Source: Escherichia phage NHEP36. From it: 64,000 nt of DNA. The stretch lies in sequence record PQ511151.1; one strand, written 5' to 3'. A program made the position numbers and the translations under genes. Shown piece after piece: positions 8,847 to 10,007 of the stretch. Each line of letters begins with the position of its first letter. Position 1 is the first letter of the stretch. The notes under the pieces were generated by a model. That model was given only the letters and a program-made list of their open reading frames with translations, did not search any database and was not told the origin of the DNA.

Positions 8847-10007
8847 ATGAATACTTTTAAAATTGGAACGAATTTTGATTTAGCTCTTCTTGATAAAATC
8901 GTAGAGCTCAATAAAACTTATCCTAATAGCTTGATAAACGAAGTATATGGCTCTACAAGAGAAATGGCTTTTGTAGCAGCCAGACCTGATTTTAGGCTTC
9001 CTGACGTTGACAAAAAGATGTTAGAAGATTACGTTAAACGTTGTAACGAATTAGGTATTTGCTTTAACTATACACTCAACACGATAAATCCTGGTTCAAA
9101 AAGAGAATTAGTTGAGTGGAAGAAGAAAGCTATTCAGGATTATGTTCAGTATCTTTGGTCAATAGGCGTATGGCGTATTACTATCGCTAACCCTGTTGTT
9201 ATGGAAATTGTTCGTGAAGTCAATAAAGACATTGAGATTGAAGTTTCAACAATTCTACATGTCGATGCTGTAACTCAAATCAAATACTTGCATGACCAGT
9301 ATAATATCAAAAAGGTCTGCTGTGGAATTCATAAGAACCGTTCAGTTTCTTTCCTGAAGCGTGCAGCAGAGTTTTGCAATAAGAACAATATAATATTTGA
9401 AGTTCTTGTAAATGAGTTCTGTTCTAATGCTGGTAAAGGGTATACAACACATTGTAGCTATCGTGACTCTTGCTATATTTTCCATAGTACCGATGTTACA
9501 GCTGATGATGCTAAATCCTTAAATGGATATCCTATGCAGCACTGTATTAAAGCTCGTGATACAGATCCATTTAACTGGTTGAGAACTCGTTTTGTTCGTC
9601 CACAAGATTTGAAACTTTATAATGATATTGGTATCACTCAATTCAAAGTTTCAGGACGTACAGGTAGCACCGACTACATTTTGAAAGTTCTTGAAGCATA
9701 CGCTTCTGAAAAGTTTGAAGGTAATTTGTTAGAACTGTGGAAGCCTTTAGAGACCATTTTCACTCTTGAAAATGAGACCGAGTTTTCACATACGGTAAAT
9801 ATTGAAACCTCTTTGTTAGACGGCTTTTTAGAAAAAAGGTGGTTCAGACATCCAGATTTCGATTGTGCTAATGAAATCTGCGGGACGACGTGTACATATT
9901 GTGAAAGATATTATAAACGTCAGTTATCTAAAAATGGGTTATCAGAAAATTCTATATCTATTATTGATATAACTAACTCTGACGACGCTTTGAGGTACCC
10001 AGAATGA
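8847..10007 (+). CDS. Cys-rich protein of unknown function; possible peptidase-U32-like (RlhA/TrhP/UbiU-type) fold
   Basis: 386 aa; EVLVNEFCSNAGKGYTTHCSYRDSC resembles the U32 signature; VSTILHV resembles HASTQ; C-terminal CANEICGTTCTYC cluster; assignment by eye only. Confidence 0.35.
   Translation: MNTFKIGTNFDLALLDKIVELNKTYPNSLINEVYGSTREMAFVAARPDFRLPDVDKKMLEDYVKRCNELGICFNYTLNTINPGSKRELVEWKKKAIQDYVQYLWSIGVWRITIANPVVMEIVREVNKDIEIEVSTILHVDAVTQIKYLHDQYNIKKVCCGIHKNRSVSFLKRAAEFCNKNNIIFEVLVNEFCSNAGKGYTTHCSYRDSCYIFHSTDVTADDAKSLNGYPMQHCIKARDTDPFNWLRTRFVRPQDLKLYNDIGITQFKVSGRTGSTDYILKVLEAYASEKFEGNLLELWKPLETIFTLENETEFSHTVNIETSLLDGFLEKRWFRHPDFDCANEICGTTCTYCERYYKRQLSKNGLSENSISIIDITNSDDALRYPE

Follow-up and report, generated by a model that had tools for sequence, protein, structure and literature searches.

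A 64,000-nucleotide stretch of the genome of Escherichia phage NHEP36 (sequence record PQ511151.1; hereafter the window, meaning the whole stretch analyzed) carries a gene for a U32-family protein that is the orthologue of gp50 of phage RB69 and is called gp50 here. On balance, we favor the view that gp50 is an O2-independent, prephenate-dependent C5-hydroxylase of deoxycytidine monophosphate (dCMP), the anaerobic counterpart of the flavin- and O2-dependent synthase gp48 encoded in the same cluster. The protein belongs to the U32 family, has the predicted U32 fold and carries two conserved Cys sites, and its gene shows genomic linkage to genes for prephenate supply and for the modification of nucleotides and sugars. 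From these observations we infer that gp50 may bind iron-sulfur (Fe-S) clusters, use prephenate, act as a hydroxylase on dCMP and serve an anaerobic role. We class it as a probable U32 hydroxylase that has been taken into the service of DNA hypermodification. The gene and the parts of its product discussed below are as follows.

8847..10007, plus strand: U32-family gene, RB69 gp50 orthologue (ATG at 8847 to TGA ending at 10007; 386 amino acids (aa))
9126..9704, plus strand: Pfam Peptidase_U32 match, residues 94-286
9420..9545, plus strand: putative metal site 1, C192-x10-C203-x5-C209-x23-C233, from conservation and from its place at the position of the canonical CX6CX15CX3C [4Fe-4S] motif
9642..9668, plus strand: FKVSGRTGS motif, counterpart of the canonical U32 'KIEGR', aligned by hhalign to SVKIEGRQRS of UbiU
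9864..9902, plus strand: putative metal site 2, C340-x4-C345-x3-C349-x2-C352, a C-terminal four-Cys cluster, from conservation (predicted local distance difference test score, pLDDT, of ~95)

The window phage is an RB69-like T4-type coliphage (Mosigvirus), and the 6.7-kb region around the gene shares 97.6% DNA identity with RB69. The U32 protein itself is 99.7% identical to RB69p050, which is labeled 'peptidase'; an in-frame GTG lies upstream of its ATG, at 8832. A sequence-only reading of this DNA had called the resemblance to the peptidase U32 family loose. The resemblance is real and significant: gp50 is clearly a genuine member of the Peptidase U32 family (PF01136), with a Pfam match (E 7e-11, 42.2 bits) above the curated gathering cut-off of 22.4 bits. 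A profile built from 72 family sequences aligned to the canonical UbiU/TrhP/RlhA alignment over 280 columns with a probability of 97% (E 5e-11), significance being reached only against this three-sequence alignment; the probabilities against single canonical U32 sequences, TrhP included, were low. An AlphaFold2 model computed from the same 72-sequence alignment (pLDDT 93, predicted template modeling score 0.91) adopts the U32 TIM barrel, so the structure prediction proposed as a check for a fold unrelated to U32 returned the family fold. This fold rules out the transferase that the sequence-only reading had offered as an equal alternative, and the glycosyltransferases of the pathway have already been given to other genes. 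Nor is the protein unrecognized: many phage records name it peptidase U32, and it has an entry in Table 1 of a recent study (PMC13326640).

Membership in the family did not point to any particular relative. None of the E. coli proteins UbiU, UbiV, RlhA, and TrhP gave a significant BLASTP match to the phage protein, phmmer against all Protein Data Bank (PDB) sequences gave zero matches, and a BFVD search returned the same phage protein and nothing else. Judged by sequence comparison, gp50 is orthologous to no characterized U32 member (RlhA, TrhP, UbiU/V). No nucleic-acid-binding domain was recognizable in it, either with Pfam or in the predicted structure. Across genera, no protein of the cluster is better conserved than U32 (83-89% identity); the synthase reaches 74-86% and the glycosyltransferase 50-71%.

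Conservation of the Cys residues far exceeds chance and reaches beyond the T4-like phages. C158, C192, C203, C209, C233, C340, C345, C349, and C352 are invariant in the 72 homologues, down to 46% identity. A wider search found 1,185 relatives at E <= 1e-3 among 1.84 billion cluster representatives. In 120 full-length members, down to ~28% identity, C192, C203, and C233 are 99-100% kept, the four C-terminal residues (C340, C345, C349, and C352) are 93-95% kept, and the C209 position has Cys in 62% of members and His in the other 38%; we regard this exchange as compatible with a metal-ligand role. The hhalign alignment puts C203, C209, and C233 within ~1 residue of the Cys region of UbiU/TrhP/RlhA. 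The conserved clusters that the sequence-only reading had linked to metal or Fe-S binding are thus borne out as conserved features, while some of their spacings need correction. In the mid-protein segment (NEFC192-SNAGKGYTTH-C203-SYRDS-C209), the G-x-G-x4-C part is present; the segment begins with E-F-C, not E-x-F-C, and its last spacing is C-x5-C, not C-x2-C. The C-terminal cluster is also present, with its first two spacings swapped relative to that description (the true order is C-x4-C-x3-C-x2-C). The VSTILHV segment was found as described, at residues 133-139. We interpret gp50 as carrying two putative four-ligand Cys sites within one chain, which would bind Fe-S clusters. Within the counterpart of KIEGR, K267, G270, and R271 are invariant, and the motif reads FK[IV][ST]GR across the subfamily. 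A radical SAM (S-adenosylmethionine) enzyme was also considered, as C345-x3-C349-x-Y-C352 fits CX3CX2C; this candidate was rejected, as the motif is C-terminal and accompanied by a conserved fourth Cys (C340), and no Radical_SAM Pfam match was found in gp50.

According to three reports (PMC10990095, PMC6599085, PMC5727448), every characterized U32 protein is linked to the O2-independent, prephenate-needing hydroxylation of an aromatic or pyrimidine carbon, and the same reports describe a prephenate requirement in E. coli for 5-hydroxycytidine (ho5C) formation by RlhA and 5-hydroxyuridine (ho5U) formation by TrhP. In UbiU/V-dependent ubiquinone synthesis, 18O labeling identified prephenate as the oxygen donor, and a shared U32 chemistry was proposed by the authors (PMC10990095).

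A protein search of 50,697 phage records was used to record the co-occurrence of U32, the gp48-type synthase, and chorismate mutase. U32 was found in 221 of these records, each at an identity of at least 80%. An AroQ chorismate mutase, the enzyme whose product is prephenate, is the next gene after U32 in 51 records from non-Mosigvirus genera, including Kanagawavirus and Winklervirus, and the hosts of phages with both genes include Klebsiella, Yersinia, Edwardsiella, Erwinia, Providencia, Morganella, and Shewanella. In the Kanagawaviruses, the mutase gene overlaps both of its neighbors, the U32 stop by 4 nucleotides at its start and the start of the gp48 homologue at its stop. The phage mutases score 38-45 bits with Pfam CM_2 (cut-off 27) and, when aligned, retain the residues at the positions that we take to be catalytic in AroQ mutases. 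The 64-kb window as a whole encodes neither chorismate mutase nor DAHP synthase; Mosigviruses would have to rely on the host PheA/TyrA for prephenate.

The slot held by chorismate mutase in related genera is filled in the window by a 76-aa open reading frame (ORF), gp49, for which no family was detectable. We considered whether gp49 could be a diverged chorismate mutase and rejected this, as it gives no CM_2 match and an hhalign probability of 3%, and both genes coexist in Yersinia and Pectobacterium phages, where a gp49-like ORF lies between U32 and the mutase. The chorismate mutases of LC53 and EcS1 (6158-6502 in locus L008 of our set) have an N-terminal extension (MRRINHTMNE...) that resembles the N-terminus of gp49 (M..INHKLNEE...), which hints at a fusion of gp49 and chorismate mutase genes in Winklervirus-like phages.

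U32 homologues of ~45-58% identity were found outside the T4-like phages, on large uncultivated phage contigs and in genome bins. The 51 such loci form 37 clusters at 90% identity, and 8 kb was viewed on each side of each locus. DAHP synthase and/or chorismate mutase occurred in 8 of the 37 clusters, in some cases as a fused DAHP synthase-chorismate mutase directly beside U32; one of the DAHP synthases scored 237 bits to its NCBIfam model, and KDO8P synthase gave 63 bits. In 19/37 clusters, the RB69 SIS isomerase, kinase/nucleotidyltransferase, or glycosyltransferase had a homologue. A dCMP deaminase was present in 6/37, with several U32 homologues directly after it. Nucleotide kinases are the commonest neighbors of U32, and thymidylate-kinase-like genes the commonest upstream neighbors. 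A gp48-like synthase was found in 0/37 clusters within 8 kb on each side, the sole thymidylate synthase match being a canonical ThyA. In these phages, a base-glycosylation kit thus accompanies U32 in place of the O2-dependent synthase, as would be expected if U32 supplies the hydroxyl acceptor.

The distribution of the two genes was also compared with the oxygen lifestyle of the hosts. Of the 373 phage records with the gp48-type synthase, 57 are from Acinetobacter phages and 20 are from Rhizobium phages, and U32 was found in none of these two sets (0/57 and 0/20), whose hosts are strict aerobes; in Acinetobacter phage KARL-1, the phosphatase gene is followed directly by the synthase gene, without U32. 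All the U32 records (221/221) come from phages of Enterobacterales or Shewanella, which are facultative anaerobes. Among GTDB species genomes, all 13 U32 matches were in bins or isolates of anaerobe lineages or uncultured organisms, including Erysipelotrichales, Oscillospiraceae, Romboutsia, Tannerella, Phocaeicola faecalis, Gastranaerophilaceae, and colon Clostridia.

The genes that surround gp50 in the window correspond to a published pathway and are listed here.

5902..6537, plus strand: SIS-domain arabinose-5-phosphate isomerase (RB69 gp55)
6719..8404, plus strand: bifunctional kinase/nucleotidyltransferase for UDP-arabinose (uridine diphosphate arabinose; RB69 gp52:53, AfhE-like)
8389..8790, plus strand: HAD-type sugar phosphatase (RB69 gp51, AfhF-like)
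10004..10234, plus strand: gp49-like 76-aa ORF, in ATGA overlap with the U32 stop (translational coupling), with a phrog_8601 match
10276..10992, plus strand: thymidylate-synthase homologue, flavin mononucleotide (FMN)/O2-dependent 5-hydroxy-dCMP synthase (RB69 gp48 orthologue, 99.2% identity)
10992..11891, plus strand: DNA arabinosyltransferase candidate (RB69 gp46:47), a single intact ORF
11893..12441, plus strand: thymidylate-kinase-like nucleotide kinase (RB69 gp45)

RB69 gp48 was shown experimentally to bind FMN, to take its oxygen atom from O2, and to make 5-hydroxy-dCMP; it is sufficient on its own in E. coli (PMC13326640). The modified base of RB69 DNA is beta-D-Araf-(1-3)-alpha-D-Araf-5-hydroxy-dC (Araf, arabinofuranose; dC, deoxycytidine) and not an arabinosylated 5-hydroxymethylcytosine (hmC); cytosine alone is modified, and 5-hydroxycytosine is formed at the mononucleotide level (PMC13326640). 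The gene that the sequence-only reading had taken for a dCMP hydroxymethylase is therefore the orthologue of this synthase. Its suggestion of a pyrimidine-modifying enzyme beside an hmC pathway holds in part: the comparative evidence favors a C5-hydroxylase in a DNA-modification pathway, and the pathway is not that of hmC. The correction makes the link to U32 stronger, because E. coli RlhA makes 5-hydroxycytidine.

In this study and in its account of He et al. 2026, the arabinose 5-phosphate isomerase, bifunctional kinase/UDP-sugar pyrophosphorylase, HAD phosphatase, glycosyltransferases, and kinases all have assigned roles (PMC13326640). gp50 appears there once, in Table 1, as a 'Sugar or heterocycle reductase', with no experiment or discussion (PMC13326640). 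It and the small gp49 are the unexplained genes of an otherwise complete pathway, and every published step runs without gp50. The literature search, which did not extend to two recent studies possibly treating the gene, found no functional statement on gp50; in the same literature, no paper linked U32 or chorismate mutase to phage 5-hydroxycytosine, and a transposon-mutagenesis preprint that mentions Bas46 and LC53 contained no data on the gp50 gene.

Several known systems resemble the one proposed here in part. RlhA (YdcP), which acts on C2501 of E. coli 23S rRNA, shares the U32 domain with gp50 and has extra Cys near its C-terminus; its C5 hydroxylation of cytosine is the base chemistry of phage 5-hydroxycytosine and needs prephenate and Fe-S clusters (PMC10990095). 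Unlike gp50, it has an RNA substrate, 653 aa, a long C-terminal extension, and the canonical CX6CX15CX3C motif. Orthology to RlhA was not found (best BLASTP E 0.05), gp50 having a single U32 domain in 386 aa and not the ~650-aa architecture. The logic proposed for gp48 and gp50 is that of the O2-dependent TrhO and the U32 protein TrhP, which is prephenate-dependent and O2-independent, the two making the same 5-hydroxypyrimidine; organisms of both oxic and anoxic niches tend to hold TrhO and TrhP (PMC6599085). The phage pair differs from them in that their substrate is tRNA, TrhO is a rhodanese, and TrhP (453 aa) has a C-terminal region absent from gp50; orthology to TrhP was again not found (best BLASTP E 0.73), and Pfam shows no further domain in gp50.

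UbiU and UbiV are U32 Fe-S proteins that duplicate the flavin/O2 hydroxylases UbiI/H/F, and the phage family aligns to UbiU over the 280 columns mentioned above. In contrast to gp50, which has two Cys sites within a single chain, they act on lipid-like benzoquinol precursors as two proteins with one [4Fe-4S] each, plus UbiT (PMC10990095). The UbiU equivalog model NCBIfam NF047963 gives gp50 18.5 bits vs a cut-off of 440, and no second U32 gene or UbiT-like gene was found in the cluster. The synthases RB69 gp48 and DLP3 gp80 make the product proposed for U32 and are encoded in the same cluster, with coupling through the chorismate mutase gene in Kanagawaviruses; they differ from gp50 in their unrelated fold, their FMN cofactor, and their use of oxygen from O2 (PMC13326640). 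Mk0906 (PDB 5D88), a functionally uncharacterized U32 protein of Methanopyrus kandleri, is 247 residues long, shares 14% sequence identity, and lacks the C-terminal Cys-cluster region of the phage protein.

In the mechanism that we propose, gp50 would be a single-chain U32 Fe-S enzyme that works without molecular oxygen and places a hydroxyl group on C5 of a deoxycytidine nucleotide, which is most likely dCMP. The oxygen atom would come from prephenate, as proposed for UbiU/V, TrhP, and RlhA. The substrate ring would lose two electrons, carried off by the Fe-S clusters, following a published proposal (PMC10990095), and prephenate decarboxylation would then deliver hydroxide to give 5-hydroxy-dCMP, phenylpyruvate, and CO2. 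The 5-hydroxy-dCMP would be phosphorylated, put into DNA, and arabinosylated by the known kinases and arabinosyltransferases. In RB69-like phages, gp50 would thus provide a second, O2-independent source of 5-hydroxy-dCMP, as a backup to gp48; a second route of this kind would be needed by a phage that exchanges all of its cytosine and has to replicate under the anoxic conditions of the gut.

Several observations weigh against this proposal. Chorismate mutase is found in zero Mosigvirus records, and its linkage to U32 comes from relatives only. The contigs with U32 alone were viewed over 8 kb on each side, and a synthase could lie elsewhere on them. The synthase occurs without U32 in E. coli Dhakaviruses (Bp7) and in ~50 further enterobacterial phage records, so U32 is dispensable in some hosts that are facultative anaerobes, and the host pattern as a whole is based on few independent lineages. 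At the level of the protein, the canonical CX6CX15CX3C spacing of the Cys residues is not kept, and all of the subfamily has Ser or Thr in place of the Glu of KIEGR. The level at which the substrate would be hydroxylated (dCMP, deoxycytidine triphosphate (dCTP), or cytosine in DNA) is proposed solely from the neighboring nucleotide-metabolism genes. Finally, no U32 enzyme has been reconstituted in vitro so far (PMC10990095).

A first alternative is that gp50 is a U32 hydroxylase of the DNA-modification pathway with another substrate, such as cytosine in DNA, dCTP, or deoxyuridylate. RlhA and TrhP do work on polynucleotides, and several metagenomic homologues directly follow a gene for dCMP deaminase, which makes deoxyuridine monophosphate. 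However, the restriction of the RB69 modification to cytosine and its formation at the mononucleotide level (PMC13326640), the lack of a recognizable nucleic-acid-binding domain, and the frequency of nucleotide monophosphate kinases as neighbors speak against this, and we hold another substrate unlikely. We rank next, and also hold unlikely, the idea that gp50 is no hydroxylase and instead assists the O2-dependent synthase or sugar metabolism in a redox role, whether as a flavin reductase, a 'sugar or heterocycle' reductase, or an electron-transfer protein. It would agree with the label in Table 1 of PMC13326640, with two putative Fe-S sites that could relay electrons, and with the constant position of U32 upstream of the FMN-dependent synthase in T4-like phages. 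However, gp48 alone suffices in E. coli (PMC13326640), and Acinetobacter, Rhizobium, and Dhakavirus phages run the same pathway without U32; in addition, a gp48-like synthase was absent, over the 8 kb viewed on each side, from all 37 U32 loci outside T4-like phages, the linkage to chorismate mutase and DAHP synthase is left unexplained, and the RB69 sugar is a plain arabinofuranose, for which an extra redox step is unneeded.

After these, we consider it improbable that gp50 hydroxylates RNA and, during infection, alters tRNA (ho5U34) or 23S rRNA (ho5C2501) of the host or phage, even though the only known U32 enzymes acting on C5 of pyrimidines have RNA substrates and need prephenate, and the chorismate mutase linkage would fit this role too. 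The protein shows no significant pairwise similarity to RlhA or TrhP, it lacks both the C-terminal domain of TrhP and the extension of RlhA (Pfam finds only PF01136 in the 386 aa), the host already owns both enzymes, and in unrelated phages the gene is constantly found among genes of deoxynucleotide metabolism and DNA glycosylation. A collagenase-like protease, as implied by the database name 'peptidase U32', is hardly credible: the name is an inherited annotation, the characterized members of the family are tied to hydroxylation, and the conserved residues are the Cys clusters. We rule it out by context, which contains no proteolysis-related genes and consists of nucleotide, sugar, and shikimate-pathway genes.

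If gp50 is indeed a prephenate-dependent dCMP hydroxylase, it would close a gap in the newly described 5-hydroxycytosine DNA pathway, whose only known synthase needs O2, and DNA precursors would join RNA and quinones as targets of prephenate-dependent U32 hydroxylation. With gp48, it would represent a third case of paired aerobic and anaerobic hydroxylases. As the first U32/prephenate enzyme with a small soluble substrate fit for in vitro mechanistic work, gp50, with its 386 aa in one chain, its nucleotide substrate, and a defined co-substrate, would open the long-standing question of the U32 mechanism to direct tests.

A broader reading, quite possible although we lean slightly against it, is that the whole subfamily (~1,200 cluster representatives) consists of self-sufficient two-cluster, prephenate-dependent C5-hydroxylases of deoxypyrimidine nucleotides. 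These would be general installers of 5-hydroxyl groups on DNA bases for viruses of anaerobes, followed either by glycosylation (SIS, nucleotidyltransferase, and glycosyltransferase genes) or by O-methylation (guanylate-kinase/methyltransferase fusions). Were this true, gut and other anoxic viromes would hold a large unrecognized class of 5-oxy-pyrimidine DNA hypermodifications. The gene sets linked to U32 in phages of anaerobes point to undiscovered DNA hypermodifications, with a bearing on the evasion of restriction and CRISPR and on the choice of phages for therapy.

Some of these gene sets deserve separate description. A four-gene module is found in anaerobe bins and viral contigs (loci L003/L069 at 5135-9098, L056 at 5159-9089, and L075-L080, e.g., L078 at 3044-7137). 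Its genes encode, in this order, a GP88-family protein, a fusion of guanylate kinase and SAM-methyltransferase (~420-440 aa), a protein of ~265 aa that bears no annotation, and the U32 homologue. By analogy with the conversion of ho5U to 5-methoxyuridine (mo5U) in tRNA, this arrangement suggests a pathway to 5-hydroxy and then 5-methoxy pyrimidine nucleotides. L003 has another U32-like gene, more divergent than the first and scoring 21.7 bits with Pfam, just below the cut-off; it follows a radical-SAM/SPASM gene (region 12160-14360) a few kb downstream of the first, at a locus with NT5C, a deoxynucleoside kinase, a nicotinamide mononucleotide transporter, and a nucleoside deoxyribosyltransferase. 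The fused DAHP synthase-chorismate mutase beside U32, with the mutase domain at the C-terminus, is encoded in L041 (6411-7433), L043-L045, and L055 (9079-10197); viruses with such fusions apparently raise the flux through the shikimate pathway.

The Dhakavirus Bp7 cluster (L011, 3878-8589) has no U32, chorismate mutase, or recognizable SIS isomerase, and a kinase gene lies upstream of its synthase; as it shares the host species, Bp7 offers a natural comparison for a cluster with the synthase alone. Scans of the region around gp50 gave promoter-like and terminator-like sites at chance level (23 vs 26.8 expected and 4 vs 4.0 expected, respectively). A sigma-70-like site, TTTAAA-16-TATAAT (10/12 matches; 8764-8791, plus strand), is located just 5' of the U32 gene, with a site frequency no higher than in shuffled sequence. 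Finally, the kinase/nucleotidyltransferase (561 aa, 6719-8404) and the arabinosyltransferase candidate (299 aa, 10992-11891) are each one unbroken ORF in the window, and the RB69 reference NC_004928 splits both (ORF053c/052c and ORF047c/046c), in agreement with the sequencing errors reported for RB69.

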